A DNA stretch of 64,000 nucleotides from positions 3,158 to 67,157 of the forward strand of contig JACWAD010000094.1 in the NCBI GenBank assembly GCA_014874175.1. Direction: 5' to 3'. Within the stretch, counting starts at the first letter, position 1, and the number at the start of each line of letters is the position of its first letter. The position numbers were made by a program, and so were the translations under genes. This document shows positions 7,644 to 63,339 of this stretch, piece after piece. The DNA comes from Thermoleophilia bacterium. Its GTDB lineage: Bacteria > Actinomycetota > Thermoleophilia > BMS3ABIN01. The notes under the pieces are model-generated. The model had not been told where the DNA came from, did not search any database, and saw only the letters and a program-made list of their open reading frames with translations.

Positions 7644-7698
7644 AACTGACAAAAGCAACCTTTCTTTACCACGTGAAACTTTAAACGTGAAACTTTTT

Positions 7699-8940
7699 TT
7701 ACATGGCCGGCAGTTCTTCCTCCGCTTTGTAAGCGTATGATTGGGGCACCGGCTCGCCCAGCTGCCGGTCCAGCTCCGGCTCTTCCTTTCTGGCGGGGTA
7801 ATACCACAAGAAGCCGTCGATCATCATCAGCATCCCCGCACTGGCAAGCAGCATGCCCCACAATCCCGGCGCCCTAAGTTCGTATACCTTGGTCAGCCCA
7901 ACGCCGATGCTGGCAAAGACTATTCCCGTGCGGATGAATCCCAGCCCTGTCCTGGCGCGGGCGTAAACCGTGCGGTAACATGCGGCTATCGTCCTGTGCG
8001 CCGCCAGGATGTTGCGCTCCCGCGCCAGGTATGTCCGCATCCGGCTTTCCGGCGCCGGCTTCAGAATGGTGCTGTAGCTTGGCAGAAGGTCTTCCAGCCG
8101 GGCAAGCATTGTTTCCCTGGTTTTGGGACGGGGCGCATCTTCCAGGTGGTAACGCTCAAGGAAGGAGACTGTCGCCGCGGTCACCTCCGCCAGTGTTTGC
8201 GGACCTGCCATCCTAAGCATTGAATGGCGAAGCTTTCCATATTGCCAGGTGCCGAAGCCGGCAATCGCCAACCCCGCAGCAGCCAGCAGCCAGATCAACG
8301 CCTGCGAAAAGACAAACTTCCAGTCAAGAATGATAAACGCCGCCGCCAGCGTCACCGTACCCAGGCCCCACCGCGCCAGCGCCTGCCAGGTCCGCATGCG
8401 CGCCATTTCCGTGCGGTAACAGGCCAGCCGCGTCCGCCACGCCGCCATCGTGTTGCGCCAGAAGGCGAGCCCGGTGCGCTCAGTGCCGATAATGCGGCCG
8501 GGGCGGTCATTCAGGTAGTCCTGGACATACCAAAGAATTTCCATCACCAGGCTGACCCTGGGCGAATAGGGTCCCTGCACAAAGCGGTCGATCTCTTCGC
8601 GAACCACGGGCGAGCCCGGATCATTCAGGGCGGCAATGACCTTGCCGTTTTCAAGGATCAATGGGAACATGGGCTCACGCTTCAGCCTCTCCGGCTCCAG
8701 GCCTTCCAGCAGCTCGGGCGGCACGGGCAGACGCTCGTCAAACTCGATGGCGGGGAAGCCGAACTCCTCCGAGAGGGCGCCAAGCAGCTCTTTTTTTGGC
8801 ACTCCGTATTCTTCCATCAAAACCGCCTCGATTTCTGCGTTCCTTTCGGCGGCGGAAGCGTATGCGGCCTTAAGCTGCTTTTTGCTGATCACGCCGGTTT
8901 CCGCCAGCCGGCGGTATGTGACAAGTTGCCTAGAAATCAT
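7699..8940 (-). CDS. membrane protein: GspE/MshE N-terminal-like (T2SSE_N) domain + two reiterated DUF202(YidH)-type ERT/RT-x-LA repeat membrane modules
   Basis: Track ORF 7699..9030; likely start is the M at 8940 (MISRQLVTY...). N-terminus ...ISKKQLKAAYASAAERNAEIEAVLMEEYGVPKKELLGALSEEFGFPAIEFDE... Repeats ERTGLAFWRNTMAAWRTRLACYRTEMARMRT... and ERNILAAHRTIAACYRTVYARARTGLGFIRTG followed by TM helices. Confidence 0.6.
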   Translation of the reverse strand: MISRQLVTYRRLAETGVISKKQLKAAYASAAERNAEIEAVLMEEYGVPKKELLGALSEEFGFPAIEFDERLPVPPELLEGLEPERLKREPMFPLILENGKVIAALNDPGSPVVREEIDRFVQGPYSPRVSLVMEILWYVQDYLNDRPGRIIGTERTGLAFWRNTMAAWRTRLACYRTEMARMRTWQALARWGLGTVTLAAAFIILDWKFVFSQALIWLLAAAGLAIAGFGTWQYGKLRHSMLRMAGPQTLAEVTAATVSFLERYHLEDAPRPKTRETMLARLEDLLPSYSTILKPAPESRMRTYLARERNILAAHRTIAACYRTVYARARTGLGFIRTGIVFASIGVGLTKVYELRAPGLWGMLLASAGMLMMIDGFLWYYPARKEEPELDRQLGEPVPQSYAYKAEEELPAM

Positions 8941-10552
8941 CTTCAAACACCACCCTGCCCCAGAGGCGGGCCGGCTTGCCGTAATCCGGCAGGCTGATCT
9001 CCAGCCCGCCGCGGCAATAGGGATACTCACGCCTGAGCCTTTCCGATGTCAGGCACCAGCGCAGCCCGTCCCCGGCCAGGATCATCCCGGCGATTACCAG
9101 CAGCAGCGGCAGCAGTTTCCAGGAAACGCCGTTGGGCAGGGTCAGTACCACCAGGGTGGCGCCGACGCCGGCGATGCTCATGCCGGTGCGGATGAAGGAC
9201 AGCCCCGTGCGCGAGTGCGCCATCACGGTGCGCACCAGCGCCATCAGATTGCGGCGCTCGGCCAGAACTGTCCGCTCCAGCGCCAGCCCGGTTGTGCCCC
9301 AAATGCCCGGTGAGTGGCCGGCGCCAACCGGCGGCGCTTTATGCCGTGACCGGTGCAGGGCGGGAAAAGCCTCGTCCCAGATCGTATCTTCCTTAAGAGC
9401 GTCAAAAAAGCTTCTCAGACCGCTTCTGCCGGCCAGGTATCCGGAGCGGTACCAGTAGAAACCTTCAAACACCATCAGGACGCCTGCGGCCATGAGAAAA
9501 TAATCCAGATACCTTAAGTCTCCCCCGGGGAACCTGGTGAACAGGCCCAGCCCCAGGCCTCCGAAGGCGACACCGCTTCTGGCGAAGGCAAGGCCGGTGC
9601 GCGCCTGCGCCATCGTGGTGCGCATGGAGGCAAAGATGGTCCGCCCCTCCGCCAGGTCAGTGCGGTCATTTGCAAGGAAACGGCGCCGCATCACCGGGGA
9701 GAGCCGCCCCCAGGCCCGCCGCAGCCGGCCGGCTCCTGATACCCTTTTAGTGCGGCTGAACTCAATATCAGAATCCTCATTATGAGTCAACAAGACTGTC
9801 ATTTCTGGAGCCTTTGCTGTTTCCTGGTAGCCTGTTTTTTTTACCGCCTCGCTCCGGGCGGGGATGTACCATTTAAGACCATCAATAATTGAATAGGCTC
9901 CGGTTGCGATCAGGGCCAGATCAAGCGGCAGGAAGAGTCCAGCGCCAAACAGCTTGATGAATGCCACGCCGATTGTGATAAGCGAGATGCCGGTGCGCAG
10001 GAACGCCAGCGCCGTCCTCGCCTTGGCCATCGAGGTCCGCTGGACGGCCAGCGAAGAGCGCACGCCTGCCAGATAGGTTCTGGTCCTGGCCAGCGGCGTC
10101 CTGCCGGCCTCGGGGGGGAAGCCGGGGTTCAGGTCCTGGTTGTTCTCGATGATGCGGACGATGTCATTTGGCAGGGCAACGCGGAAGTCAACCTGACTGA
10201 CCCCTAGCGTGCTTTTGATATCCTTGACTACTTGTGGAGCGTGGGGCTGGCTGGCGATGACCTCGGCCCGGCCGCCCTGGATGGAGATCGGCATCCACAG
10301 CTTCTGCTTCAGCTCTTCAGCGTCGACGCGGCGCATAATTTTCCATGACACCATCAGGTCTTCATCGTACTCAATGTAAGGGCAGCCGTAGTGCTCGGAG
10401 AGGCTGACCAGGGCCTCGCACTTGGGCACGCCCCTTTCCAGCAGGATCTGCTCCAGCGGCCTGCCGGATTCTTCAGACAGCTTCAGCGCCGCCTCCAGGC
10501 CGTTCTTGTCAATGGAGCCGTTTTTTTGCAGCCTCTTATACACTGGCCTCAT
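8930..10552 (-). CDS. paralogous membrane protein: T2SSE_N/MshEN-like domain + three DUF202-type repeat modules
   Basis: Track ORF 8930..10612; probable start is the M at 10552 (MRPVYKRLQKNGSIDKNGLEAALKLSEESGRPLEQILLERGVPK...). Three repeats of RT-x-LA-x2-RT...RTG followed by TM helices. Confidence 0.6.
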   Translation of the reverse strand: MRPVYKRLQKNGSIDKNGLEAALKLSEESGRPLEQILLERGVPKCEALVSLSEHYGCPYIEYDEDLMVSWKIMRRVDAEELKQKLWMPISIQGGRAEVIASQPHAPQVVKDIKSTLGVSQVDFRVALPNDIVRIIENNQDLNPGFPPEAGRTPLARTRTYLAGVRSSLAVQRTSMAKARTALAFLRTGISLITIGVAFIKLFGAGLFLPLDLALIATGAYSIIDGLKWYIPARSEAVKKTGYQETAKAPEMTVLLTHNEDSDIEFSRTKRVSGAGRLRRAWGRLSPVMRRRFLANDRTDLAEGRTIFASMRTTMAQARTGLAFARSGVAFGGLGLGLFTRFPGGDLRYLDYFLMAAGVLMVFEGFYWYRSGYLAGRSGLRSFFDALKEDTIWDEAFPALHRSRHKAPPVGAGHSPGIWGTTGLALERTVLAERRNLMALVRTVMAHSRTGLSFIRTGMSIAGVGATLVVLTLPNGVSWKLLPLLLVIAGMILAGDGLRWCLTSERLRREYPYCRGGLEISLPDYGKPARLWGRVVFEDDF

Positions 10553-11054
10553 CCGCCGGCAGCGCGGGAGAAACAGGATATGCAGGGGCGCCGCCGCGCG
10601 CCATGGTGACAACGGGGTGGGGCGAGTGCTTCAGCATGCGTTTGCGGATAGTGCGGCTTTCCGTAACCATGGGGCTGAGCAGAACCATGTCTACTTTCAT
10701 TTTTCGCAGAAAACACATGATCGTGGACGCGGTCGCCTCCAGCTCGGCATGCACGGTAGCTGCGATGCCGTGGTGATTGCATTTTTCGATCAGCAGGCTT
10801 TCTACCGGCACAGAAGCCTGGCGGCTGTTTTTTTCATGCAGGGCCGCCGCGGCCTCGGCATAGGCATCCGGGAAAGGGGAGACCGAAGCAATGGAGGTCA
10901 ACGCCTTCTCAAACCGGCTGCCGGAGCCGTGGCTGCTGAGCAGCAAGATCCGGAGAGGCTTGCTGAGCAGTTTGGCGAGATATATGGCGTAAGAAATGCC
11001 ATGCTCGTAGTGCTCATCCTTATAGGCTACGTATAGAAGTTCCTGTCCTGACAT
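10536..11054 (-). CDS. hypothetical protein, USP-like alpha/beta fold
   Basis: ATG at 11054 has a perfect SD GGAGGAG 1 nt upstream. Product MSGQELLYVAYKDEHYEHGISYAIYLAKLLSKPLRILLLSS... The track ORF extends to 11210, probably spuriously. Confidence 0.5.
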   Translation of the reverse strand: MSGQELLYVAYKDEHYEHGISYAIYLAKLLSKPLRILLLSSHGSGSRFEKALTSIASVSPFPDAYAEAAAALHEKNSRQASVPVESLLIEKCNHHGIAATVHAELEATASTIMCFLRKMKVDMVLLSPMVTESRTIRKRMLKHSPHPVVTMARGGAPAYPVSPALPADEASV

Positions 11055-11090
11055 GACTCCTCCTTTTTTTCTCTTTATAAAAAGTGAAGG

Positions 11091-11106
11091 AGCAAGAACC
11101 ATGCCA
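11091..11106 (-). promoter_or_regulatory. sigma-54 (RpoN) -24/-12 promoter TGGCAT-N5-TTGCT driving the USP-like/MshEN-DUF202 operon
   Basis: Minus-strand sense CTGGCATGGTTCTTGCTCC: GG and GC exactly 10 nt apart. About 35 nt upstream of the ATG at 11054, directly downstream of the sigma-54 activator gene. Confidence 0.6.
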
Positions 11107-11202
11107 GCTTTATAATTAGCCTGCAAAAAAGGGATAAATTTAGCGGCAATCAGCGCTCGTTCAGGGCGGAAAAGAAGATTTGGGGCGGTTGCTTCAAAAA
11201 AA

Positions 11203-11219
11203 CGTTTCAATAAGAAACG
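11203..11219. promoter_or_regulatory. 17-bp palindrome CGTTTC-N5-GAAACG, candidate enhancer-binding-protein UAS ~100 bp upstream of the sigma-54 promoter
   Basis: Perfect inverted repeat CGTTTCAATAAGAAACG. More GAAAC repeats follow (GCGAAACAGTTAACAGAAATTCTGACGAAAC). Confidence 0.4.
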
Positions 11220-11266
11220 CTAGCGAAACAGTTAACAGAAATTCTGACGAAACATCCCTGGCCGGC

Positions 11267-12604
11267 CTATTTTTCTTCCTTTAGCATGCGCCAGAGGCTG
11301 GTGCGGGAAACGCCCAGCACACGGGAGGCTTCGGACTTGTTGCCGCCAAACATCTCCAGCACGGAATGCACGTATTCCCTGTTAATTTCAGCCAGGGATT
11401 TTACCTTGTCCGGTTCCAGCGAGGTTTCTATTTGAAACATAAGCAGCGATTGTGGCAGGGATTCGGCGGTTATAAATGTACCCTTTTCCAGAATGACGGC
11501 GCGCTCGATGATGTTTTCCAGCTCGCGCACATTGCCCGGATAGCTGTACCGCTTGAGCACATCGAGCGCCTCCCTGTCAAACCTGCTTATTTTCTTGCCG
11601 TATTCGCGCACGTGCTTGCGCAGAAAGAATTTGCTTAAGGGCGCAATATCTCCCCTGCGCTCGCGCAGCGGCGGCACGTATATTTCCATGACATTAAGGC
11701 GGTAGTAGAGATCCTTCCGGAACGAGCCCCTGGCTACCGCCTCACTGATGTTCTGATTTGTGGCCGCAATGAACCTGGCGTCCGCCCGGACCGGCTTTAT
11801 GCCGCCAACCGGATAGAACTCCCTCTCCTCGATGGCCTTCAGCAGCTTGGCCTGCAGGTTGGGCGACATTTCGGTTATCTCGTCAAAAAAGAGAGTGCCC
11901 TTGCCGGCGATTTTCATCAAGCCCTGTTTGCGCGAATCCGCCCCCGTAAAGGCCCCTTTTTCGTGGCCGAACAGCTCGCTGGCCAGCAGCTCTTCGGAGA
12001 AAGTGGCGCAGTTCAGGGACAGGAAGGGCTTGTCGCGGCGCGCGCTGGAGTAGTGGATAACCTTGGCGAGCAGGTTCTTGCCCACCCCGCTTTCGCCGGT
12101 AAGAAGAACGTTGCAGTCCGACCCCTGGATGCTGTTGACCATCTCCAGCACCTTTTTCATGCCCCTGCTCTCGGCAATGACATTGATATTTTTACCGAGG
12201 TCAAGGGATGTGCGCAAGGCAACGTTCTCCTGGGCGAGCTCTTTCTGCTTAAGGATGTTTTGCACCTTCAGAAGCAGCTCGTCGAGATCGAAAGGCTTAG
12301 GCAGGTAATCAAAAGCGCCTTTCTTCATTGCCTCCACGGCCGAGTTGATGCTGCCGAAACCGGTAATGACGAGCACTTCTGTCTCGGGTGAAATTTTCTT
12401 CACCCGCGTCAGCAGCTCGAGGCCATCCATTTTAGGCATCTTGATGTCGGCAATGAGCACATCGAAGTCTTTTGACTTTATTTCATTGAGGGCGTCAACG
12501 CCGTTTCCGGTGCTCTCCACCTCGTAACTTTCATCACGGAGAATGTCAGCCAGATGTTTCCTGGTGATGTCCTCATCCTCTGCTATCAGAATCCTGAAAG
12601 TCAT
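11267..12604 (-). CDS. sigma-54-dependent response regulator (NtrC/AtoC family: REC + AAA+ + Fis HTH)
   Basis: 445 aa; REC domain; GESGVGK Walker A; GAFTGA sigma-54 contact motif; C-terminal HTH. Confidence 0.9.
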   Translation of the reverse strand: MTFRILIAEDEDITRKHLADILRDESYEVESTGNGVDALNEIKSKDFDVLIADIKMPKMDGLELLTRVKKISPETEVLVITGFGSINSAVEAMKKGAFDYLPKPFDLDELLLKVQNILKQKELAQENVALRTSLDLGKNINVIAESRGMKKVLEMVNSIQGSDCNVLLTGESGVGKNLLAKVIHYSSARRDKPFLSLNCATFSEELLASELFGHEKGAFTGADSRKQGLMKIAGKGTLFFDEITEMSPNLQAKLLKAIEEREFYPVGGIKPVRADARFIAATNQNISEAVARGSFRKDLYYRLNVMEIYVPPLRERRGDIAPLSKFFLRKHVREYGKKISRFDREALDVLKRYSYPGNVRELENIIERAVILEKGTFITAESLPQSLLMFQIETSLEPDKVKSLAEINREYVHSVLEMFGGNKSEASRVLGVSRTSLWRMLKEEK

Positions 12605-14187
12605 GGGCGCTTCTCCAGGGGCAGAATAATTTCAAAGATGGTCCCGATGCCTTCTTCGCTAATCACCGATATTTGCCCTTCGTGCTTCCGAATTGTACTC
12701 AATACAATCGCCAGCCCCAAACCGGTCCCCTTGTCTTTTTTTGTGAAGAAGGGATCGAAGATCTTTTCCCTGTCTGAGGGCGGTATCCCTTTGCCGGTGT
12801 CGGAGACCAGGATTTCCAGATCGCCGTTCTTGGGGCTGATATGAACTGCGATTTTGCCTTCTCCTTCTATGGCGGCGATGGCGTTTGTAAACAGGTTGAC
12901 AAAGGCGCGCTCCAGCTGCGGCTGGTCCGCCTGCAGCCTGACCTCGCGGCCGCCGGAGTCCAGCTCAAATTCAATTCCGTCTGCGTGCGCCGACTTTTGC
13001 GCCAGATTATATGCGCCGGCAACCAGGCTGTTGATATTCACCTTCTTAAGCTGCAGCTCCCGCTCGCGGGCAAACTCCAGCAGGTTGCTGACGATGTCCC
13101 GCACCCTCTCGGTCTGCCCGACAATATCATTGACGATTCGCATCACGGCCGGCGGCTCGCCGGCGCCGATTTTTTTCTTCAGCACCTGGGCCGAGAGGCT
13201 GATGTTATTAAGAGGGTTGTTCAATTCGTGAGCCACGCCAGAGGCGAGGGTGCCGATCGCCGCCAGCTTTTTTGCCTGCAGCAGCGCCTCCTGGTTCTTT
13301 TCCCGGATCCGGCGCTCCCACTCGCTGCGCAGGTGGTTCATTCTGTTAAATTTGTCAACCAGGATATCAACTTCATCCTTGCGCACCCGCCCACCGCCTC
13401 CTCCAGGCCGCGGTGTCTTGGGGCCGAACAGCTTGCTGATCCGCTCGATTGCGCCCGTGAGGGCCTTGACCTTCTTGACGACATCCGAGCTGACGTAAAG
13501 CAGAGCCCCCAGGCCAATCATAAGAAACAGCGGGAAGACAACCAGTATCTCGAGCTGGGACTGGTTGATAACATTGCCGGCGCTGCTGCGGGTGTTCTTG
13601 TCCAGGTCATTGGCGGCAGTAACAATATTGTTGCTGGTGTCGCGCAGCTGATTAATCCGGGTGCTGAGCAATCCAAGCGCCGCCACCCGGGAGTCGCCGG
13701 CCGGAAGCGAGAGGCTGCTTTTAAGGTAGGCCGCCGCCAGTGAAGGATTGTCGCGTGATTCGGCTTTAAGCAGGGGGATAGCCCCGGCAGCCCCGGGACT
13801 GGTTGTTCCAAGCGCGTCAATTCCCTGCGATATCTGCGCCAGCAGAGCCTGGATACTAATAAATTCAGACTGGTAGGTTGTAATGAGGCCCCTTAAATTG
13901 ACGGCGGCCGAGGGATCTTCCGCCTCGATGTCTCCCGTGAGGCCGTCCAGCTCGGACAGGTAGCCCAGTGTCGCCGCCGATTCCTGCGCCGCCTTGTCCG
14001 GGAAGAGAAAGAAGTTTTTCTCGTGCCTTAAGATCTTCAGCGACCTGTCCCGGGCTGAATCGGCCACCTCCAGAAACCGCATCTGGTTTTTTTCCTGGAT
14101 GAAATTAATGTACTCAAATGTGGCGAGGGTGCCAACAATCAGGACGCTGATGAGGAAACTGAGTATGATCTTTTTGCGGAGGGACAT
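12601..14187 (-). CDS. sensor histidine kinase (TM + sensor + HAMP + HisKA + HATPase)
   Basis: 528 aa; H-box GVAHELNNPLN; N/G-box motifs; 4 nt overlap with the downstream RR gene. Confidence 0.85.
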   Translation of the reverse strand: MSLRKKIILSFLISVLIVGTLATFEYINFIQEKNQMRFLEVADSARDRSLKILRHEKNFFLFPDKAAQESAATLGYLSELDGLTGDIEAEDPSAAVNLRGLITTYQSEFISIQALLAQISQGIDALGTTSPGAAGAIPLLKAESRDNPSLAAAYLKSSLSLPAGDSRVAALGLLSTRINQLRDTSNNIVTAANDLDKNTRSSAGNVINQSQLEILVVFPLFLMIGLGALLYVSSDVVKKVKALTGAIERISKLFGPKTPRPGGGGGRVRKDEVDILVDKFNRMNHLRSEWERRIREKNQEALLQAKKLAAIGTLASGVAHELNNPLNNISLSAQVLKKKIGAGEPPAVMRIVNDIVGQTERVRDIVSNLLEFARERELQLKKVNINSLVAGAYNLAQKSAHADGIEFELDSGGREVRLQADQPQLERAFVNLFTNAIAAIEGEGKIAVHISPKNGDLEILVSDTGKGIPPSDREKIFDPFFTKKDKGTGLGLAIVLSTIRKHEGQISVISEEGIGTIFEIILPLEKRP

Positions 14188-14528: not shown

Positions 14529-16034
14529 GTGAGTAATTTGGCGAGCTTTCCCCATCCGTTCTTTTCCAGCAAGCCGAACTGGAAATGGTTCATTTTAACA
14601 ACGGTGTTGATGGGCGCCACCATGTCGGCGCTGGACGTCAGCATCGTCAACGTCGGCATGCCGACGATGAAATCGGATTTTAACGTCTCCACCTCAATGA
14701 TCGCGTGGGTGGCGATGGCCTACATGATCACGCTGACGATTTTCCTGCCGTTCTTTGGCCGGCTGGCGGATATGCTGGGCCGGACCAGGCTGTATACGAT
14801 CGGCTTTGTTGTATTTACGGTCGGCTCGCTCTTCTGCGGCTTGGCGCCCAGCGCTTATATTCTGATTGGCTCGCGCGTGTTGCAGGCGGTGGGCGCCGGC
14901 CTTCTGCAGGCAAATTCAGTGGCGATTATCGTTTCTTCCTTTCCTTCGAGTGAGAGGGGCAAGGCGATCGGCATCCAGGGCGCCGTCCAGGCGATCTCGA
15001 TGTCCATCGGCCCTCTGGTTGGCGGCATACTGATCGCCGCCATCGGCTGGCGGGCCATCTTCTATGTGAACCTGCCCATCGGCCTGATTGGCGTCACGGC
15101 GGCGCTGCTGATCCTTCCCAAGAGCGAGAAGGCTGCCGAAAAGGAAAGGGTGGATTACTTTGGCACCCTGGCTTTTGTTATCGGCCTGGGGGGGCTGGTG
15201 CTGGGCATTAACGGGATGGGAACCCAGGGAATTAACCCCACGATTATTGCCTACTTGGCGATCGCAGTTGTGTTCCTGGTGATCTTTGCCATTACCGAGC
15301 TTAGAATCAGGTTCCCGCTGATAGATTTCAATATGTTCAAGAACGGGCTGTTCCTGCTGGGAAATGTGACCGGCATGCTTTCGTATTACGTGCTGTTTGG
15401 GATTCTGTTCCTGATGCCGTTCTACATGGAGAACGTGCTCAATTTCAGCGCTGGGGCAGCAGGCTTGCTTCTGACGCCTGTACCTCTCTCGATGGCGATT
15501 GTGGCCCCGTTTTCGGGCAACATTTCTGACAAGTATGGATCGAGAATCATGACTACCGCCGGCATGGTGACGGCCTCAGTCGGCTGCCTGGCAATGTTTT
15601 TCCTGGGCTCGGCGACCGCCGTGTGGCTGCTGATCATCGAGCTGGTTGTTATCGGGGTGGGCATGGGTATGTTCACGCCCCCCAACAATAGCGCCATCAT
15701 GGGAGCGGCCCCCAGGGACAAACTTAGCGTGGCGGGCGGGATTCTGAATATGACCAGGTCGCTGGGGTCGATTTTCGGCGTTGCTGTCTCCAGCCTGGTA
15801 TTGACTACCCTGGAGCACAATTACCTGTTCGGCAAAGGCTACCCTGTTGTCAAACATGTGTTTAGCGGCAATAATATTCCCGTAGCCGACAGGGACGGAG
15901 CTTTTCTGCATGGCCTCGCGCTGGCGATTGCGATCATGCTGGGGCTGACCATCATTTCTACCGTGCTCTCGATCGCCAAAAAGGAGGGCGAGGCGCTGGA
16001 CTCCGAGGCGGTCAAGGAATTTGAGGGAATCTGA
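14529..16034 (+). CDS. MFS transporter, DHA2 (EmrB/QacA) family, 14 TMS
   Basis: 501 aa, GTG start in track; multiple TM helices; motif LDxSIVNVGMP; GRLADMLGR. Confidence 0.85.
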   Translation: MSNLASFPHPFFSSKPNWKWFILTTVLMGATMSALDVSIVNVGMPTMKSDFNVSTSMIAWVAMAYMITLTIFLPFFGRLADMLGRTRLYTIGFVVFTVGSLFCGLAPSAYILIGSRVLQAVGAGLLQANSVAIIVSSFPSSERGKAIGIQGAVQAISMSIGPLVGGILIAAIGWRAIFYVNLPIGLIGVTAALLILPKSEKAAEKERVDYFGTLAFVIGLGGLVLGINGMGTQGINPTIIAYLAIAVVFLVIFAITELRIRFPLIDFNMFKNGLFLLGNVTGMLSYYVLFGILFLMPFYMENVLNFSAGAAGLLLTPVPLSMAIVAPFSGNISDKYGSRIMTTAGMVTASVGCLAMFFLGSATAVWLLIIELVVIGVGMGMFTPPNNSAIMGAAPRDKLSVAGGILNMTRSLGSIFGVAVSSLVLTTLEHNYLFGKGYPVVKHVFSGNNIPVADRDGAFLHGLALAIAIMLGLTIISTVLSIAKKEGEALDSEAVKEFEGI

Positions 16035-16084: not shown

Positions 16085-16942
16085 ATGGCCGAACAATGTC
16101 CTCTGGGCGAGCTGGAAAAAATACTGGTGGCGACGGATGGGTCCGAGTCAAGCGGGGGGGCGATCAGAGAAGCTCTGAGCCTGGCCGGCCTGTGCACCAG
16201 CAAGCTTACGGCCGTCCTGGTCGTCGAGTCTTTCCAAAGGTTTGCTTTTCTGGCTCCAAATGTTATCGGGACGATGGCGGACGTGGCCCAACAGCAGGAA
16301 GCCGAGGGACGCAGATACCTGGAGGAATCGGTCAGGGCAAAGGCTGCGGATTCCGGAATTGAATGCGACATCGTAGTCAAAACAGGTGACCCGTTTGGCG
16401 TCATTATCGAAGAAGCCAAGAGAAGCGGATCTGAGCTGATTATCATCGGGCGCCGCGGCCTGTCGCACCTGGCCCGGATGGCGATGGGCAGCGTGACAGC
16501 CAAAGTGATCGGCGACATGCCCAGCGATGTGCTGGTGGTTCCCAAGGATGCCAGCACCGATTGCAGAGTTATCCTGGCCGCAACGGATGGATCGAGCGAT
16601 GGCAGGATGGCGGTGGAGGAAGCTATAAAGATGAGCCGGAAGTGCGGCAGCAGGCTGCTGGCTATATCCGTGGCAAAGTCCGAGGCCCGGGAGGCGGAAG
16701 CCGCCGGGGCCCTGGCCGAAGCAAAGGAGCTTGCCAGGGGCGCCGGCGTCGAGATGGAGACGCTTGCCGCAACCGGAAAGCCCTACGTGGAGATTATCAA
16801 GGCAGCCGAGGCGAATGGCGTCGATCTGATCGTCGTGGGCCGTCATGGCCGGGGCAAGCTGGAAAAACTGCTGATGGGCAGCGTCACCGAACGGGTTGTC
16901 GGCCATGCCAGCTGCGCGGTGCTGGTTTCGCGGTCTTTTTAA
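16085..16942 (+). CDS. tandem universal stress protein (2x UspA domain)
   Basis: 285 aa; two repeats of ...ILVATDGSE...GSVT..V........VLVV. Confidence 0.85.
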   Translation: MAEQCPLGELEKILVATDGSESSGGAIREALSLAGLCTSKLTAVLVVESFQRFAFLAPNVIGTMADVAQQQEAEGRRYLEESVRAKAADSGIECDIVVKTGDPFGVIIEEAKRSGSELIIIGRRGLSHLARMAMGSVTAKVIGDMPSDVLVVPKDASTDCRVILAATDGSSDGRMAVEEAIKMSRKCGSRLLAISVAKSEAREAEAAGALAEAKELARGAGVEMETLAATGKPYVEIIKAAEANGVDLIVVGRHGRGKLEKLLMGSVTERVVGHASCAVLVSRSF

Positions 16943-17157: not shown

Positions 17158-18573
17158 ATGCCCGGTTCTTTCGAAATCATCAAGAAACAGCTTGCGGTCC
17201 GCCTCAAGCATGCGGCCGCCGAAGAGTCCATCATGCTCATCAGCGTCCTCAAGTGGACAGTGCTGGCCACGATCACGGGCGTGATAGTTGGCTTTTCTTC
17301 CGGCGGTTTTCTCTTGTTGCTGAAATGGGCGACGAACTACAGCGGCCAGTACTATTACTATTTTCTGTTGCTGCCGGTGGGCTTTTTCATCAGCTCCGTG
17401 CTGGTCAAGTACCTGGCCCCGGAAGCCAAGGGCCACGGCACCGAGAAAGTGATCGAGGCGGTGCACAAGCGTTCCGGCAAGATCGCGCTGCCGGTGGTGC
17501 CTGTCAAACTGGTGGCGACGCTGGCTACCCTGGTTGTGGGCGGCTCGGTCGGCAAGGAAGGCCCCAGCGCCCAGATCGGCGCCGGCCTGGCCTCGGCATT
17601 TGCCGACCTTTTCCGCTTTGGCAACTCCGACCGTAAAAAGCTGGTCATCTGCGGCATCAGCGCCGGCTTCGCCTCCGTGTTCGGCACGCCCATTGCCGGC
17701 TCCATTTTCGGCATCGAGGTGCTGTTCATTGGCGGCATGATGTACGAGGTGCTGCTGCCATCGTTCATCGCCGGCATTATCAGCTTCGAAGTCTCATCGC
17801 ACCTGGGAGTGTCATATTTTTACCATGCGATCAAATTCGCGCCCACCTTTAGCAGCTTGTTCTTCTCCAAGGTCATCCTGGCCGGCATTTTCTTTGGCGT
17901 CTGCTCGCTGCTGCTGATCGAGGGGCTGAAAATGGGCGAAAGGATTGCTCACAGGATGCGCTTCTGGCTGCCCCTGCGCGGAATCGTAGGCGGCGCCTTC
18001 CTGATCGTGCTGACGCTGATTTTTTCCAGGCAGTTCCTGGGCCTGGGGCTTGACAGTATCCAGGGAGCCCTGACGGGAGCGCAGATTGTCTGGTACGCGT
18101 TCCTGCTCAAGATTGTTTTTACGAGCATCACCTTGGGCATGGAAGGAAGCGGCGGCATCATTACACCAATATTCTTCGTCGGCGCCACCGCCGGCAGCGC
18201 TTTCAGCTCTCTGCTTGGTCTCGACCCCGCTACTTTTGCCGCCATCGGCATGGTGGGGCTGGTGGCCGGAGCCGCCAATACGCCGATCGCCGCCAGCATT
18301 CTCACGGTGGAACTGTTTGGCCCGGCGATCGCCCCTTACGCCGCCATCGCCGCCGTGATCAGCTTTCTGATCTCTGGTCACAGAAGCGTTTACCCATCCC
18401 AGGTGCTGGCCATGGCCAAGTCTCCTTCGCTTGAGGTGGAAAAGGGATGCGAGATTGTGGAGGCGCACCCGACATTCGCGCTGCGGGAAAAGAGCCTGAT
18501 CTCTTTTCTGTACTACAGGGTCTGGCGGTTTCTCTGCAACCTGGGAGGGCGCAGGGACGAGGGGAAACGGTAG
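17158..18573 (+). CDS. ClC family voltage-gated chloride channel / H+-Cl- antiporter
   Basis: 471 aa; GSVGKEGP and GTPIAGSIFGIEVLF selectivity motifs. GKEGP identifies the canonical Cl- type, not the CLC-F type. Confidence 0.85.
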   Translation: MPGSFEIIKKQLAVRLKHAAAEESIMLISVLKWTVLATITGVIVGFSSGGFLLLLKWATNYSGQYYYYFLLLPVGFFISSVLVKYLAPEAKGHGTEKVIEAVHKRSGKIALPVVPVKLVATLATLVVGGSVGKEGPSAQIGAGLASAFADLFRFGNSDRKKLVICGISAGFASVFGTPIAGSIFGIEVLFIGGMMYEVLLPSFIAGIISFEVSSHLGVSYFYHAIKFAPTFSSLFFSKVILAGIFFGVCSLLLIEGLKMGERIAHRMRFWLPLRGIVGGAFLIVLTLIFSRQFLGLGLDSIQGALTGAQIVWYAFLLKIVFTSITLGMEGSGGIITPIFFVGATAGSAFSSLLGLDPATFAAIGMVGLVAGAANTPIAASILTVELFGPAIAPYAAIAAVISFLISGHRSVYPSQVLAMAKSPSLEVEKGCEIVEAHPTFALREKSLISFLYYRVWRFLCNLGGRRDEGKR

Positions 18574-28000: not shown

Positions 28001-29179
28001 TTGTTGAGCTTTGACGAGTTAAGAGAGCAGCTCAAAATAACGGCTGCCCAACTGCAGGCGGCGCGGGATCAGATTTCGGAGCTGAAGCAGCAGCTGCGCG
28101 ACTACCCTGAACAACTTGAGCAGAAAGTCAAGGAAAGAACGCGGGAACTGGAGGCAATCAACCGCATCGCCGCCACGGTCAGCCGCTCACTTAATCTGGA
28201 TGAGATTTTAAAAGATTCCCTGGAGAAAGCGCTGGAATTCCTGGAACTCGGCGTTGGCGCCATTTTCCTTGTTGACGAAAGGAAGGGCGAGCTCGATTTG
28301 ATGGTGCACCGCGGCTTTTCCAATGACCTCGTTTCGCGCCTGCAGGTAAGCCCGATAGACAGCGGCTGGCCCGGGAGCGTTGCCCGGGACGGCAAGCCCC
28401 TGCTGATTGAAGACGGAGGTGGGGCTGGCCTGGAGGGCATTGCGGAGGCGCGGGCCAATAATTCGGAGTTTAAATCGTTGGTGGGAATTCCCTTGAAGTC
28501 GAAGGGCCGCGTGCGCGGGGTGCTTTGCGTCTGCAGCCCGGAAAAAAACCGCTTCACTCGTGAAGAGTTGAATGTGCTGGTGACTGTGGGGGGAGAAATC
28601 GGCGTGGCCATTGAGAATGCCTGGCTCTATGAGAAATCTTACGCTTACTCAAAAAAAATGGAAGAGCTGTCCATAACCGACAGCCTTACCGGTCTTTTTA
28701 ACCGCCGTCATTTCTACCGCCGTCTCAAAGAAGAAATCGCCCGCGCCAGGCGGCAGCACCACCCGGTGTCGCTGCTGGTGGTCGACCTCGACAACCTCAA
28801 GGATTATAACGACAGGCGCGGCCATCTGAAAGGAGACGAGGCTTTGCGCGGAGTGGCGCAGGCGATTACGGCCAGCATCAGGCAGGATGTAGACACCGGC
28901 TATCGTTACGGCGGCGATGAGTTTGCCGTCATCCTCCCGTATAGCGATGAGCGGGAGGGGGAAGTCGTGGCCGGCCGGATCCGGGAAACGTTTGCAGGGT
29001 TTGCTTTCCCGGACACCGGCCTCAGCCTGGGGCTGGCGCAGCTTGAGCCGGATGAAGAAGTGGACAGCCTGGTTTCGCGTGCCGACACGGCAATGTACGT
29101 GGCTAAGAATTCCGGCGGCAACCGCGTTTGCAGGGCCGGCAAAAAGAAGCATGGCCCTGGGCTTGATGCCGATGAGTGA
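28001..29179 (+). CDS. diguanylate cyclase with N-terminal coiled-coil and GAF domain (GAF-GGDEF)
   Basis: 392 aa (TTG start in track); RYGGDEF active site; GAF-like region upstream. Confidence 0.85.
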   Translation: MLSFDELREQLKITAAQLQAARDQISELKQQLRDYPEQLEQKVKERTRELEAINRIAATVSRSLNLDEILKDSLEKALEFLELGVGAIFLVDERKGELDLMVHRGFSNDLVSRLQVSPIDSGWPGSVARDGKPLLIEDGGGAGLEGIAEARANNSEFKSLVGIPLKSKGRVRGVLCVCSPEKNRFTREELNVLVTVGGEIGVAIENAWLYEKSYAYSKKMEELSITDSLTGLFNRRHFYRRLKEEIARARRQHHPVSLLVVDLDNLKDYNDRRGHLKGDEALRGVAQAITASIRQDVDTGYRYGGDEFAVILPYSDEREGEVVAGRIRETFAGFAFPDTGLSLGLAQLEPDEEVDSLVSRADTAMYVAKNSGGNRVCRAGKKKHGPGLDADE

Positions 29180-59732: not shown

Positions 59733-60206
59733 ATGGGCAACAAGATCCTGATTCCCGTTGATGGGTCGCAGGCGGCGCTGGACGCGGCCCGGTTCGCAGT
59801 CCGGCTGGCAGCCGTCCTGGATCTGGAGCCAGTGGCGCTTAGGGTTGTTGACGTTGACCGTTACGCTTCCGAATTTGAGGCAGTGCGCGACACTGTCGCC
59901 GCTGAGCTGGAGCGGGGCGCGAAAAAAATCCTGGCGGAAGTGGAGACGATGGCGGCGGCGACTGGCGTTTCAATCGAGACGCTGGTCCGGCACGGCGATT
60001 CCTCGCGGGAGATCATCCGTTTTGCCCGGGATACGCCCGCGGTGGTGCTTATTGTTATCGGCGCTAGCGGCAGGCGCCGCCTGGGGCGGCAGATGATCGG
60101 CAGCACTGCCGACCGCGTTGTCCGCCAGGCAGCCAGGGATCTTCCCTGTCCGGTGGTTGTTGTGCCCAGCCGGGCCGACCAGCCGGAGGCCAGGCTGGAC
60201 CTGTAA
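59733..60206 (+). CDS. universal stress protein UspA
   Basis: 157 aa; KILIPVDGS...GSTADRVVRQA..CPVVVV. Confidence 0.85.
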   Translation: MGNKILIPVDGSQAALDAARFAVRLAAVLDLEPVALRVVDVDRYASEFEAVRDTVAAELERGAKKILAEVETMAAATGVSIETLVRHGDSSREIIRFARDTPAVVLIVIGASGRRRLGRQMIGSTADRVVRQAARDLPCPVVVVPSRADQPEARLDL

Positions 60207-60226
60207 CGCGCCAGACGCCCGGTCAA

Positions 60227-60252
60227 AAGCGATTAAGCGGCTCCGGCCGCTT
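60227..60252 (+). terminator. rho-independent terminator after the usp gene
   Basis: AAGCGGC-TCCG-GCCGCTT followed by TTCTT. Confidence 0.5.
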
Positions 60253-60295
60253 TTCTTGAAAGGTTGTCCTGGCAGGCTCTTCGTTGCCAGACCGA

Positions 60296-60325
60296 GCGAA
60301 AAAAGCGGCCCTCTCCTGAGAGGGT
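60296..60325 (-). terminator. rho-independent terminator after the RR-HD-GYP gene
   Basis: Minus-strand sense CCCTCTC-AGG-AGAGGG followed by CCGCTTTTTTC. Confidence 0.5.
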
Positions 60326-60351
60326 TTGCTAAGTGCCTATCCCGGCAGGCG

Positions 60352-61365
60352 CTAAGCTTCGCCGGCATGGAAATCAGTCTGTTTGCGCGCCTTTTCCTCG
60401 TCGTCGATCATCGCTGCAAATTCGCTGACAATGCCGGGATCCCATTGCCTGCCGGCCTCGCGCTCAAGGGTGTTTAAGGCCTGGCTTTGCGACATCGGCG
60501 GCCGGTATGGCCGCGGCGAGGTCATGGCGTCATAGGCGTCCACGACCGAGATTATCCTCGCTTCGACCGGAATCTCGTTGCCAACCAGGTGATCGGGATA
60601 GCCTTTGCCGTCGTAGCGCTCCTGATGATAGCGGATCACCGTCAGGAGCAGATTGGCGGACCTTAGCGGCCTGACAATTTTCTCGCCGATAGCGGGGTGA
60701 TCCTGGACCGCGATCAACTCCTTTGTTGACAGGGGGCCCCGCTTTTGCAGGATCGATTCGCTGATGCCGATCTTGCCGATGTCGTGAAGAATGCCGGCAT
60801 CGCGGATGACATCCTGCTGCTCCCGGGACAGGCCCAGCCTTTTTGCCAACCTGACCCCGTAACCGGAGACGCGCTCGGAATGACCGCGCGTGTAGGGATC
60901 GCTGGCTTCGATTGCCAGGGCGAGGGTGTAAATTACGTCCCGGGCGCTTTCCAGATCTTCATTTAAATGCTTTGTCCTTAGCAGGGATTTTACCCTTATC
61001 AAAAGCTCCATCTTGTCAATGGGCTTGGAAAGGAACTCGTCTGCCCCTGCCTCGAACCCTTTCACCTTGTCATCAATTTCCCGAAGCGCCGTAAGCAGCA
61101 TGACGGGGATGCGGCGCGTTTCCTCCCCGGCCTTTATCTTGCGGCAGGCCTGGTAGCCGTTGACGCCGGGCATCATCACATCTAGGATGATCAGGTCGGG
61201 AAGGCCGGTGCCGGAGTCCCTGCCGTCCAGAATCTCCAGTGCTTCGGCGCCGCTGTAGGCGCAAATGACCTTGTAGCCGGCGCCTGCGAGGTATGCCTCC
61301 AGCAGCTGCACATTGGGCACGTTATCGTCAACTGTTAATATCTTGTCCTGATGGTTGGTCGTCAT
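60352..61365 (-). CDS. response regulator with HD-GYP c-di-GMP phosphodiesterase domain (RpfG-like)
   Basis: 337 aa; REC domain (phospho-acceptor D in ...LIILDVMMP...); HD-GYP motifs HDIGK, GKGYP. Confidence 0.85.
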   Translation of the reverse strand: MTTNHQDKILTVDDNVPNVQLLEAYLAGAGYKVICAYSGAEALEILDGRDSGTGLPDLIILDVMMPGVNGYQACRKIKAGEETRRIPVMLLTALREIDDKVKGFEAGADEFLSKPIDKMELLIRVKSLLRTKHLNEDLESARDVIYTLALAIEASDPYTRGHSERVSGYGVRLAKRLGLSREQQDVIRDAGILHDIGKIGISESILQKRGPLSTKELIAVQDHPAIGEKIVRPLRSANLLLTVIRYHQERYDGKGYPDHLVGNEIPVEARIISVVDAYDAMTSPRPYRPPMSQSQALNTLEREAGRQWDPGIVSEFAAMIDDEEKARKQTDFHAGEA

Positions 61366-61368
61366 ATC

Positions 61369-63339
61369 CTAGTCCACGGCCCCGGCTTCGCGAGGGCGTT
61401 TCTGCCGCGCCTCATAGAGCAGGCGGCTTTCCAGGCGGCAGAGCAACTGCTCTTTTGACACCGGCTTGACAAAGTAGTCAAAGGCCCCCAGCTCCAGGCC
61501 GCGGCTGCTTCTCTCCAGTATTGAAACAATGATTACCGGAATGACGCTGGTGTCAGGATCGGCCTTAAGCTGCCTAAGCGCCTGCCAGCCGTCCACGCGG
61601 GGAAGCAGAATGTCGAGCGTGATTGCATAAGGCTTCAACTCACGGGCCAGCTTGAGCGCCTGCTCGCCGTCAAAAGCGCGCGCAACCCGGAAGCCTGCTT
61701 CACCAAGCCAGAGGCCGATAAGCTCACTTGTCTGAAGGTCATCTTCGGCGACCAGCACCAGTGGCTGGCCGGGAGTATCCTCCGCCCCCACCTCCGGCTT
61801 GAGGACACCGGCAGCCGGGGGCTGGTCGGATGCCCGCCGCCTGCCCGGGGTTAGCGGCAGCGTGAAAGCAAACCGGCTTCCCTGGCCCGGTTTGCTTTCA
61901 ACACGGATGGTGCCGCCGTGCAGCTCTACCAGCTTTTTTGTCAGCGCCAGCCCTACTCCTGTTCCCTCAAAGTGGCGGGCATGGTCACTTTCCAACTGCT
62001 TGAACTCGATGAATATTTTTTTCTGGTCTTCAGGACTGATGCCGATGCCGGAATCCGAGACCCAGAACTCAACCATGCCGCCCAGGGCTTGGGCGCCAAT
62101 AGTTACCCGGCCCCCTTCCGGCGTAAATTTAATGGCGTTGCTGACAAGATTATACAGGATGCGCTTGACCTTGGCGGCATCGGCCTGCACCAGCGGCAGC
62201 CTCTCGGACGCTTTTACCGCGAGCCAGATGCTCCGCTGGGCCGCAAACGGGTGCCCCAGCTTGCGCACATCCTCCATCAGCTGGGGGACGGAGAGATCTT
62301 CCTTGACCAGCTCGGGGTTGTCGGAGCCAACTGCCGCCAGGTCAAGAATATCGTTGACCAATTGCAATAAATGAAGGCCGCTGGTCTCGATATTGGTCAG
62401 AAATTTCTGCTGGTCTTCCTGGCCGGCTCCTGCCTTCTCCTTCAGCAGCTCGGAAAAGCCGATGATGGCGTTAAGCGGCGTGCGCAGCTCATGGCTCATT
62501 ACCGACAGGAATTCGGATTTCAACCGGTTGGCCTCCAGCAGGTTCAGGTTGACCTGCCGCAAGTCCTGTTGCGATTCTTCCAGGCTGTCCGCCATTTTGT
62601 TAAAGCTGGCCGCCAGGCCGCCGATCTCGTCGCGGGACCTTACGTTAACGCGCCGGCTAAGGTCGCCGCTGGACATTTTGCCGATGGTCCCGACCACCTT
62701 CTTCAGCGGCTTGATGACGGTCATATGAAGCGAGATCCCCAAAACCAGCAGCAGCGCCGCCAGTCCAGGCACGAAAAATCCGACCATTCTGAAAACGTTG
62801 CTTCTGATCGCCTCCTGCACGTCCGCCATTGATGTCGAAACCAGGACGGCACCGCGCAGTGGATTGCCGGAGCCGTGGCACTTCTGGCAGGCGGCCTGGT
62901 TGGGCAGCGGCGTCACGTTTACCAGGTACTGCTGGCCGCCGCGCTCCTCATAAAACTGGGAGCGGGAGCCGGAGCCAAGCACATCAAGGACCTGCCGGGG
63001 CGGCAGGCCGGCAGCGGCGTCGGAGCCGGCAAAAACTTCCTTGCCCTGGGTTGAGAAAATCTGGATGCGGTCCACTGCCAGGGCGCGCCTCAGGTTCTCA
63101 AGGTCGCTGGTCATGCCGGGGCCTTTGCCTCCCAGCATGGTGTTCTGGATGGCGCTGACCACCTGCGAGCTGAGGCTGGCGGTATGCTCTTCCTTTTGGA
63201 TTGTCAGATCGTTGGCGTGGGCGGTGATATCAAGGATGGCAAAGATTACGGAGCCAATTACGATTAAGGTCATCGTCAGGCCCAGAATTTTGACCTCCAG
63301 GCTTTCCCGGAACCTGCTGATGAAACCAAAAAGTTTCAT
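61369..63339 (-). CDS. hybrid sensor histidine kinase (periplasmic sensor + HAMP + HisKA + HATPase + C-terminal REC)
   Basis: 656 aa; H-box SHELRTPLN; G-boxes; C-terminal receiver with conserved Asp. Confidence 0.85.
   Translation of the reverse strand: MKLFGFISRFRESLEVKILGLTMTLIVIGSVIFAILDITAHANDLTIQKEEHTASLSSQVVSAIQNTMLGGKGPGMTSDLENLRRALAVDRIQIFSTQGKEVFAGSDAAAGLPPRQVLDVLGSGSRSQFYEERGGQQYLVNVTPLPNQAACQKCHGSGNPLRGAVLVSTSMADVQEAIRSNVFRMVGFFVPGLAALLLVLGISLHMTVIKPLKKVVGTIGKMSSGDLSRRVNVRSRDEIGGLAASFNKMADSLEESQQDLRQVNLNLLEANRLKSEFLSVMSHELRTPLNAIIGFSELLKEKAGAGQEDQQKFLTNIETSGLHLLQLVNDILDLAAVGSDNPELVKEDLSVPQLMEDVRKLGHPFAAQRSIWLAVKASERLPLVQADAAKVKRILYNLVSNAIKFTPEGGRVTIGAQALGGMVEFWVSDSGIGISPEDQKKIFIEFKQLESDHARHFEGTGVGLALTKKLVELHGGTIRVESKPGQGSRFAFTLPLTPGRRRASDQPPAAGVLKPEVGAEDTPGQPLVLVAEDDLQTSELIGLWLGEAGFRVARAFDGEQALKLARELKPYAITLDILLPRVDGWQALRQLKADPDTSVIPVIIVSILERSSRGLELGAFDYFVKPVSKEQLLCRLESRLLYEARQKRPREAGAVD

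Follow-up and report, generated by a model that had tools for sequence, protein, structure and literature searches.

A conserved pair of arginine-heptad DUF202-type membrane proteins encoded behind a sigma-54 promoter

Proteins A and B, encoded by two overlapping genes in a 64,000-nt stretch of DNA from a bacterium labelled Thermoleophilia (contig JACWAD010000094.1, positions 3,158 to 67,157, hereafter the window), are a conserved, uncharacterised two-gene membrane system that is built from the known DUF202 module. A has three and B has two copies of a long helical hairpin in which an arginine recurs at every seventh residue, and the two genes stay together across the loci that we compared. 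The pair follows a gene for a protein resembling universal stress proteins (USP-like), which is itself preceded by a sigma-54 promoter and by the genes of a sensor histidine kinase and an NtrC-type activator. By analogy with a known pore, our analysis suggests that A and B may form a heteromer serving as an arginine-lined conduit or binding track for an anion or a linear polyanion. We offer this tentatively, as a possible reading somewhat short of a probable one.

Arginine-heptad hairpins of the A-B pair

The operon and the two regulatory genes that precede it are all encoded on the minus strand. The coordinates of the USP-like, A and B reading frames, and the perfect Shine-Dalgarno sequence of the USP-like gene, are as given in the original prediction, which a model had made from the letters of the DNA. 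Pfam domains likewise confirm the kinase and the NtrC-type activator that it placed directly upstream of the operon (11267-14187). The genes and the domains of A and B are as follows.

12601-14187, minus strand: sensor histidine kinase, 528 aa, with an N-terminal membrane/periplasmic region, HisKA and HATPase_c (Pfam)
11267-12604, minus strand: NtrC-type sigma-54 enhancer-binding protein with REC, Sigma54_activat (E 2.9e-65), AAA_lid_14 and HTH_8 (Pfam)
10536-11054, minus strand: USP-like protein, 172 aa (open reading frame call; AGGAGG 6 nt upstream of the ATG)
8930-10552, minus strand: protein A, 540 aa, with an MshEN/GSPII-fold domain, a conserved linker, three hairpin modules and a conserved C-terminal tail (Pfam, AlphaFold2, alignments)
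10133-10552, minus strand: N-terminal MshEN/GSPII-fold domain of A, residues 1-140, with a degenerate cyclic di-GMP (c-di-GMP) motif
9839-10117, minus strand: module A1, residues 146-238 (DUF202 34.2 bits alone; AlphaFold2)
9431-9706, minus strand: module A2, residues 283-374 (DUF202 27.0 bits alone)
9023-9307, minus strand: module A3, residues 416-510 (DUF202 35.4 bits alone)
7699-8940, minus strand: protein B, 413 aa, with an MshEN/GSPII-fold domain and two hairpin modules (Pfam, AlphaFold2)
8509-8940, minus strand: N-terminal MshEN/GSPII-fold domain of B, residues 1-144 (Pfam 25.9 bits; Foldseek)
8209-8493, minus strand: module B1, residues 150-244, with RW instead of RTG, in register with the other four modules and the most divergent of them
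7765-8052, minus strand: module B2, residues 297-392 (DUF202 26.5 bits alone)

The start of A overlaps the stop codon of the USP-like gene, and the ATG of B sits within the last codons of A, with an 11-nt overlap with the A stop (ATGATTTCTAG). Because the gene ends overlap in this way, the three genes are very likely co-transcribed and translationally coupled, as judged from the sequence. An adenine deaminase gene converges on the operon downstream of B, and no canonical intrinsic terminator was found there. A direct repeat, AGTTTCACGT, occurs twice, 14 nt apart, at 7671-7694 directly after the B stop codon. It resembles the GTTTC half-site of a palindrome that precedes the operon, but relatives do not retain it.

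The original prediction described two to three reiterated DUF202 modules per protein, and the number is exactly three in A and two in B according to Pfam together with a detector of Arg/Lys runs at spacing 7. The detector counted three modules in 111/112 A homologues and two in 108/108 B homologues. Against Pfam DUF202 (PF02656, cut-off 23.4 bits) the whole of A scores 60.5 bits in three stretches, and A1, A2, A3 and B2 each pass the threshold individually; the whole of B (19.5 bits) and B1 alone, which had no match, do not. The profile was matched in the modules only from its position 1 to position 52 to 63 out of 68.

We aligned the five modules of A and B with those of 9-11 homologues each, which gave 50 module sequences. 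All five modules share one register, in which the arginines at positions 13, 20, 27, 34 and 41 are invariant and exactly 7 residues apart, and position 6 is arginine in nearly all of the sequences. Within the heptad the conservation is 100% for Arg, 91% for Ala(-3), 87% for Leu/Met(-4) and 95% for Thr/Asn/Ser(+1), while the other three positions are variable; therefore one face of the predicted helix, made of Leu, Arg, Ala and Thr, is conserved. No conserved acidic partners for the ~30 module arginines were found across the five module types.

AlphaFold2 models built from alignments of ~110 sequences (pLDDT 84.5 and pTM 0.78 for A, pLDDT 81.9 and pTM 0.63 for B) predict each module as a hairpin, in which a helix of 50-56 residues is followed by a short loop and a return helix of 29-41 residues ending in DG.xWY. 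In A1, six RTxxLAx heptads lie on a 52-residue helix (151-202) and the return helix spans residues 208-236. Since the first helix carries the heptads and then continues as a hydrophobic stretch, ~four heptads must, on these models, project into the cytoplasm. The last two arginines would be at or within the inner leaflet, to judge from helix length and hydrophobicity. Two other parts of A are almost invariant, namely the first inter-module linker (residues 240-285; LSPVMRRRFLA, two short strands) and the C-terminal tail (residues 511-540; PDYGKPARxWGKVVF, two short strands), and they may together form a small cytoplasmic beta-sheet element.

The N-terminal domains of both proteins had been predicted to resemble that of T2SS-E/MshE, and they score above the cut-off of Pfam MshEN (PF05157, 23.1 bits) with 37.9 bits for A and 25.9 bits for B. 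Both subdomains of the fold, a four-helix bundle and an alpha/beta part, are present in A and in B. The Foldseek search with the domain of B led to the PilB-N/PilZ complex, MshE and PilF GSPII-B, and the nearest solved relative of the A and B domains is the c-di-GMP-binding GSPII-B domain of PilF.

Among the candidates scored, 883 homologues of A and 895 of B were found at E <= 0.001, with 'DUF202 domain-containing' or 'type II secretion protein' as their best annotations. The family is narrow, giving 39 matches at E <= 1e-30 in 1.84 billion representatives, and no A-B fusion protein was found in that collection. A one-genome-per-species scan yielded 323 stretches with a relative, mostly from Nitrospirota/Thermodesulfovibrionales. 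The closest relatives, at 60-83% identity, come from metagenome-assembled genomes labelled Actinomycetes, Actinomycetota or Thermoleophilia. The architecture had been called not standard; it is indeed unannotated and unstudied, but it belongs to a conserved family.

Conservation of the gene neighbourhood, named in the original prediction as a check, bears out the pairing. In every comparable locus (80/81) A is immediately followed, on the same strand, by a homologue of B; the lone exception, L039, has its contig edge just after A, and no locus with A and without B was seen where the contig allowed one. Three loci (L045, L046 and L065) have an extra A paralogue, A', between A and B and thus 3+3+2 = 8 modules; in L046, A (~10001-11629) and A' (~11745-13427) are followed by B. 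A Thermoleophilia variant (L082:6776-13483) is located between rplL and rpoB. Its A-like protein has no MshEN domain and its B-like protein has lost the four-helix subdomain and retains the alpha/beta part only, yet the modules are still 3 + 2, and a kinase, a regulator and a PPDK-like gene still follow A-B. From this comparison of sequences the 3+2 hairpin set, and not the N-terminal domains, therefore emerges as the invariant core of the system. The upstream spacer of the same locus contains poly-G/poly-C tracts and a 10-N assembly gap.

Promoter, palindrome and gene neighbourhood

The spacer between the activator gene and the USP-like gene is 212 nt long. Three elements were recognised upstream of the operon.

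11091-11106, minus strand: sigma-54 promoter -24/-12 element TGGCAT-N5-TTGCT (motif match and conservation)
11203-11219, no strand assigned: palindrome CGTTTC-N5-GAAACG, a probable activator binding site, or upstream activating sequence (sequence and conservation)
11237-11254, minus strand: second copy of the TGTTTCG-containing direct repeat D1, whose first copy (11213-11230) overlaps the palindrome

We took as a sigma-54 promoter a -24 GG / -12 GC element of the form TGGCAC-N5-TTGCW with correct spacing, and TGGCATGGTTCTTGCT at 11091-11106 has these features and is the sole match in the window. At least one match was obtained in 20% of window shuffles, and a single match is hence not rare by chance, so the significance of the element rests on its conservation. 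In 6/6 close relatives the spacers otherwise diverge, yet TTGGCAYGNTTCTTGCTCCT is present at an unchanged distance from the start codon. A -24/-12 element precedes the USP-like gene in ~30/37 loci across phyla, including Nitrospirota, against a background expectation of 0.014 matches per 330 nt. The predicted promoter is upheld by these comparisons. Directly upstream of A, such an element was found in 0/79 loci.

The centre of the palindrome lies ~105 bp upstream of the -24 element in the window. The predicted 17-bp palindrome is real, and it is kept in six relatives (L002-L007), including L007, which has a kinase gene upstream in place of the activator gene. Palindromes of the related form GTTC/GTTTC-N5-7-GAAC were found in 30/37 loci; in Nitrospirota 65-75 bp separate them from the downstream -24 element, and a second copy is often present farther upstream. 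The window palindrome also scored as terminator-like, but the T-run after its stem is not conserved in relatives. Because it is kept in L007, recurs upstream of the promoter in Nitrospirota and has no conserved T-run, we read it as a likely, still putative, activator site, which may double as the terminator of the activator gene in this genome. The CTGTTTCG block of the D1 repeat is conserved in close relatives, and the second TGTTTCG copy could possibly be an additional activator half-site. The original prediction had proposed a self-contained regulatory circuit here, and the predicted circuit of kinase, NtrC-type activator and sigma-54 promoter is well supported by the comparison of promoter and palindrome across phyla.

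Sigma-54 promoters and NtrC-type activators are, as far as we know, unusual for Actinomycetota. The closest relatives of the window (L002-L007) come from metagenome-assembled genomes labelled Actinomycetes, Actinomycetota or Thermoleophilia, yet they, like the window, have conserved sigma-54 promoters together with NtrC-type activators. Either these labels are wrong or the lineages possess RpoN.

The first gene of the operon had been called USP-like. Its product gave no match in Pfam and NCBIfam, and the region of the glycine-rich ATP motif of universal stress proteins (G-x2-G-x9-G(S/T)) is not conserved in it; on the other hand, hhalign aligned it with the bona fide universal stress proteins of related loci at a probability of 42% (E 2.7e-4), co-linearly over 122 columns. 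A remote, degenerate relative of the universal stress proteins (PF00582) is thus a plausible but weak assignment. Homologues of this protein are present in 42/82 loci.

We clustered all open reading frames of 82 loci. Kinase homologues are linked to the cluster in 60/82 loci and an NtrC-type activator is nearby in 38/82. In Nitrospirota a long same-strand cluster has the order kinase, NtrC-type activator, USP-like, TauE/TSUP permease, Alph_Pro_TM (TIGR02186), tandem universal stress protein, universal stress protein, A and B, and continues after B with a second paralogous kinase, a REC-only regulator and a PPDK_N/PEP-utilizer protein of 850-890 aa, the C-terminal 300 aa of which have no assignment. 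For the part from the USP-like gene to the PPDK_N/PEP-utilizer gene L075:5446-16422 is typical, and L014, L015, L026, L049 and L078 are further examples. The second kinase is found after B in most Nitrospirota loci. The three genes after A-B were found in ~46-49/82 loci, including the Thermoleophilia locus.

The window lineage has a reduced cluster of the USP-like gene, A and B only. It keeps A-B but has lost the second kinase, the REC-only regulator and the PPDK-like protein, and nowhere in the window is there a gene for TauE, Alph_Pro_TM or the PPDK-like protein. We compared the upstream kinase (12601-14187) with the second kinase of L075 (L075:11904-13319) and its equivalents, and found them 27-30% identical over ~530 aa, including the N-terminal sensor region, over which no Pfam domain was found. 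The two kinases may, on this likeness, respond to one signal or to related ones.

Genes for CLC channels, MFS transporters and a P-type cation ATPase are found repeatedly near the cluster, and MFS and CLC genes stand beside A-B in unrelated loci. The window has the following genes divergent from the kinase gene.

14529-16034, plus strand: MFS transporter
16115-16933, plus strand: tandem universal stress protein
17158-18573, plus strand: CLC chloride channel

The PADLOC anti-phage models gave no match to the USP-like protein, A, B or the PPDK-like protein.

A tentative conduit model and its rivals

We propose that the locus would combine regulators and effectors in one self-contained unit. Its kinase and its NtrC-type activator would drive the sigma-54 promoter through the palindrome, and one transcript would carry three translationally coupled genes, those of the degenerate USP-like protein, A and B. 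A and B would be obligate partners in one membrane complex, most simply with 1:1 stoichiometry; together they supply five distinct conserved units with a basic stripe, and a 1:1 five-helix heteromer is the most economical reading. A would contribute three and B two of the five DUF202-type hairpins in each complex. In every hairpin the first helix may reach ~four heptads into the cytoplasm before it enters the membrane, with six arginines on its Leu-Ala-Arg-Thr face, and the five long helices could pack as a pseudo-pentameric bundle whose lumen or groove is lined by ~30 arginines. Candidate substrates would be phosphate, polyphosphate, sulfate-type anions or another polyanion.

GspE-N binds GspL, and PilB-N binds PilZ. 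The MshEN-like domains of A and B could similarly be protein-interaction or gating modules at the cytoplasmic mouth of the complex, and not canonical c-di-GMP receptors. We count the recurrent TauE/TSUP, CLC, MFS, P-type ATPase and universal stress protein neighbours in favour of the conduit; such anion- and ion-transport neighbours, together with sigma-54 two-component control, would fit a role in stress-induced ion homeostasis.

DUF202 is, as far as we know, a large bacterial family of uncharacterised function, and the only DUF202 proteins with a known role that we are aware of are the membrane domains of the yeast VTC complex. The template for our model would be the VTC channel, in which five DUF202 domains (three of Vtc1, one of Vtc3 and one of Vtc4) serve as a polyphosphate pore. 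In a more specific form, A-B would be a bacterial counterpart of this pore that, under the stress control of sigma-54, carries a linear polyanion (polyphosphate, for example) through the cytoplasmic membrane, and we consider that form unlikely. The translocon that we propose for it would be a pseudo-pentameric alpha-helical barrel with ~six stacked arginine rings leading from the cytoplasm into the membrane.

Several observations weigh against the conduit and against its likeness to VTC. The orientation of the arginines and the ring geometry of A and B are predictions; the compact A chain (pTM 0.78) could be a closed six-helix bundle instead of three fifths of a ring, and the heptad arginine could take a flanking (e) position instead of a lumen position. 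The loci with A, A' and B can be reconciled with a simple fixed pentamer only if alternative complexes form. In the AlphaFold2 models each module of A and B has two membrane helices, whereas Vtc1 and YidH have three. For the membrane part of A and B, neither structural nor direct sequence comparison gave a significant match to VTC: the module profile found no VTC chains in the PDB at E <= 10, and hhalign of the modules against Vtc1 gave a probability of 6%, so it is solely by way of the Pfam family that the modules are linked to VTC. The conserved neighbours do not include a polyphosphate enzyme (PPK, PPX, TTM, SPX). The conduit also has a serious rival in a scaffold or sensor role tied to the kinase, regulator and PPDK-like genes that lie downstream.

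According to this rival, which we judge somewhat unlikely, A-B would be a membrane-anchored sensor or scaffold in signal transduction and not a conduit. Its juxtamembrane helices, rich in arginine, would bind the anionic head groups of lipids or monitor the state of the membrane or envelope, and its MshEN-like domains would recruit the second kinase, the REC-only regulator or the PPDK_N/PEP-utilizer protein. The frequent presence of these three genes after A-B speaks for it, as does the fact that the MshEN folds of PilB and XpsE are known interaction modules, with the PilB-N/PilZ complex among the top structural matches of our domains; some single-module relatives are even fused to a REC domain (P0198). 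But ~30 arginines that are 100% invariant and have no conserved acidic partners exceed what a lipid-binding amphipathic helix usually needs. Moreover, the Thermoleophilia variant dispenses with MshEN domains and keeps the modules, and the window lineage keeps A-B after the loss of the three putative signalling partners.

It is less likely still that A and B act separately as homo-oligomers, for example with A as a closed six-helix bundle, and that the 3+2 set is coincidental. The compact prediction for the single A chain (pTM 0.78) and the three loci with an additional A paralogue are consistent with separate action, and single-module relatives must homo-oligomerise if they assemble at all. 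Such independence is hard to reconcile with the invariant adjacency of the two genes, their stop/start overlap and co-retention in two phyla, or with A never being seen without B where the contig allowed it.

The original prediction implied that the MshEN domains are c-di-GMP receptors, from which it would follow that A-B is a c-di-GMP-gated effector whose N-terminal domains bind c-di-GMP and switch the membrane modules. The MshEN/GSPII fold, its nearest solved relative being a c-di-GMP-binding domain, would favour this, and the window does encode a GAF-GGDEF cyclase (28001-29179) and a REC-HD protein of the HD-GYP type (HD_5, 60352-61365), both of which had been predicted and were confirmed. 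These two genes are elsewhere in the window and say nothing specific about the operon. The latter belongs to a second signalling cluster at 59733-63339, where it lies on the minus strand between a universal stress protein gene (59733-60206, plus strand) and a hybrid kinase gene (61369-63339, minus strand) with an Mcp40H-20-type sensor, HAMP and REC.

MshEN receptors of c-di-GMP have two tandem 24-residue motifs, RLGxx(L/V/I)(L/V/I)xxG(L/V/I)(L/V/I)xxxxLxxxLxxQ, for which a relaxed pattern is also given (Wang et al. 2016, PMC5013675). The relaxed motif was found in 0/112 A-family and 0/108 B-family proteins (0/220), although the pattern is not an absolute criterion, since a control fragment of the known binder PilF GSPII-B fails its literal form through a one-residue deletion. 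The position-3 glycine, the backbone of which contacts guanine, is conservatively replaced, by Phe/Tyr in motif 1 and by Glu in motif 2; the position-1 arginine is not conserved, and the closing glutamine has become Ser/Ala or Tyr in the A and B families. The NCBIfam model c-di-GMP_motif (NF053729) gives 20.4 bits for A and 17.7 bits for B, about half of its cut-off of 38. Because the motif is absent, the NCBIfam score is below the cut-off and the four-helix subdomain is dispensable in the Thermoleophilia variant, canonical c-di-GMP binding by these domains appears unlikely, and the receptor claim is not supported. We regard a c-di-GMP-gated effector as very unlikely. A and B clearly illustrate that a domain can have the MshEN fold and still not merit annotation as a c-di-GMP receptor.

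Finally, A-B might be a relic or an accessory component of the machinery for type II secretion or type IV pili. This idea has only the MshEN/GspE-N-like domain and the source annotations 'type II secretion protein' on its side and can hardly be credited, as Pfam finds no T2SSE ATPase domain in either protein, the conserved neighbours include no pilin, secretin or platform genes, and the NCBIfam PilB model (TIGR02538) scores 24-26 bits against a cut-off of 676.

Should the VTC-like form of the conduit be true, it would be the first prokaryotic polyanion translocon of its type and would assign a function to the DUF202/YidH superfamily. It would also show how some anaerobic bacteria (Nitrospirota and Thermoleophilia-like lineages) move anions or polyanions under stress, and would guide the annotation of thousands of DUF202 proteins.

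Comparison with known systems

The N-terminal parts of A and B share the fold of MshE, PilF, PilB and XpsE with its four-helix and alpha/beta subdomains. In A and B, however, the domain is joined to membrane hairpins and not to a secretion ATPase. Their degenerate tandem motifs resemble those of the non-binding GSPII-A domain of PilF.

Among the relatives of the modules are single-module proteins with a long RT heptad (P0202, P0176 and P0198), which share the RTxxLAx heptad and a two-helix hairpin ending in RTGLAF.RTG...DG..WY. Unlike A and B, they have one hairpin after 12-20 uninterrupted heptads, no MshEN domain and in some cases a REC domain; they are also uncharacterised. P0176, P0197, P0202, P0204, P0213, P0215, P0220, P0198 and P0177 are all single-hairpin proteins of this kind, in which arginines recur at a spacing of 7 over as many as 134 residues and lead into the same two-helix hairpin, and P0198 and P0177 add a C-terminal REC domain. 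A broader arginine-heptad membrane family thus appears to be unstudied.

The YidH-type DUF202 proteins (~115 aa, inner membrane) belong to the same Pfam family and have the same ERTxLAxxRT signature as our modules. They differ from A and B in having a single module with two heptads and three membrane helices, and no cytoplasmic domain. YidH was a candidate in a D-Ala export screen and had no effect on transport (PMC10299036).

The yeast VTC polyphosphate polymerase/channel (8i6v, 7ytj) is among the nearest known parallels. In 8i6v there are three Vtc1 chains, one Vtc3 and one Vtc4, and yeast Vtc1 passes the Pfam DUF202 threshold. The five first membrane helices form the polyphosphate pore, the lining of which includes K24 and R31 of Vtc1 and the equivalent residues; its constriction is R31/R709/R629, and mutation of pore-lining residues abolishes vacuolar polyphosphate (PMC9911596). 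K24 and R31 are 7 residues apart, R31 being the arginine of the ERT motif, and position 1 of the DUF202 profile corresponds to Vtc1 residue 24 and to the fourth heptad arginine of our modules. A-B and VTC thus share the Pfam family of their membrane units, five DUF202 units of unequal kinds (3+1+1 in VTC, 3+2 in A-B), and basic residues 7 apart on the first helix at the ERT arginine, in a motif that is reiterated in A and B. They differ in that the SPX/TTM catalytic domains are absent from A, B and their conserved neighbours, that the units of A-B are concatenated 3+2 in two polypeptides, and that the first helix of A and B is extended into the cytoplasm by ~four extra arginine heptads. The VTC-like hypothesis is made concrete by the obligatory pair, by the fixed 3+2 modules and by an invariant arginine stripe that is longer than that of VTC.

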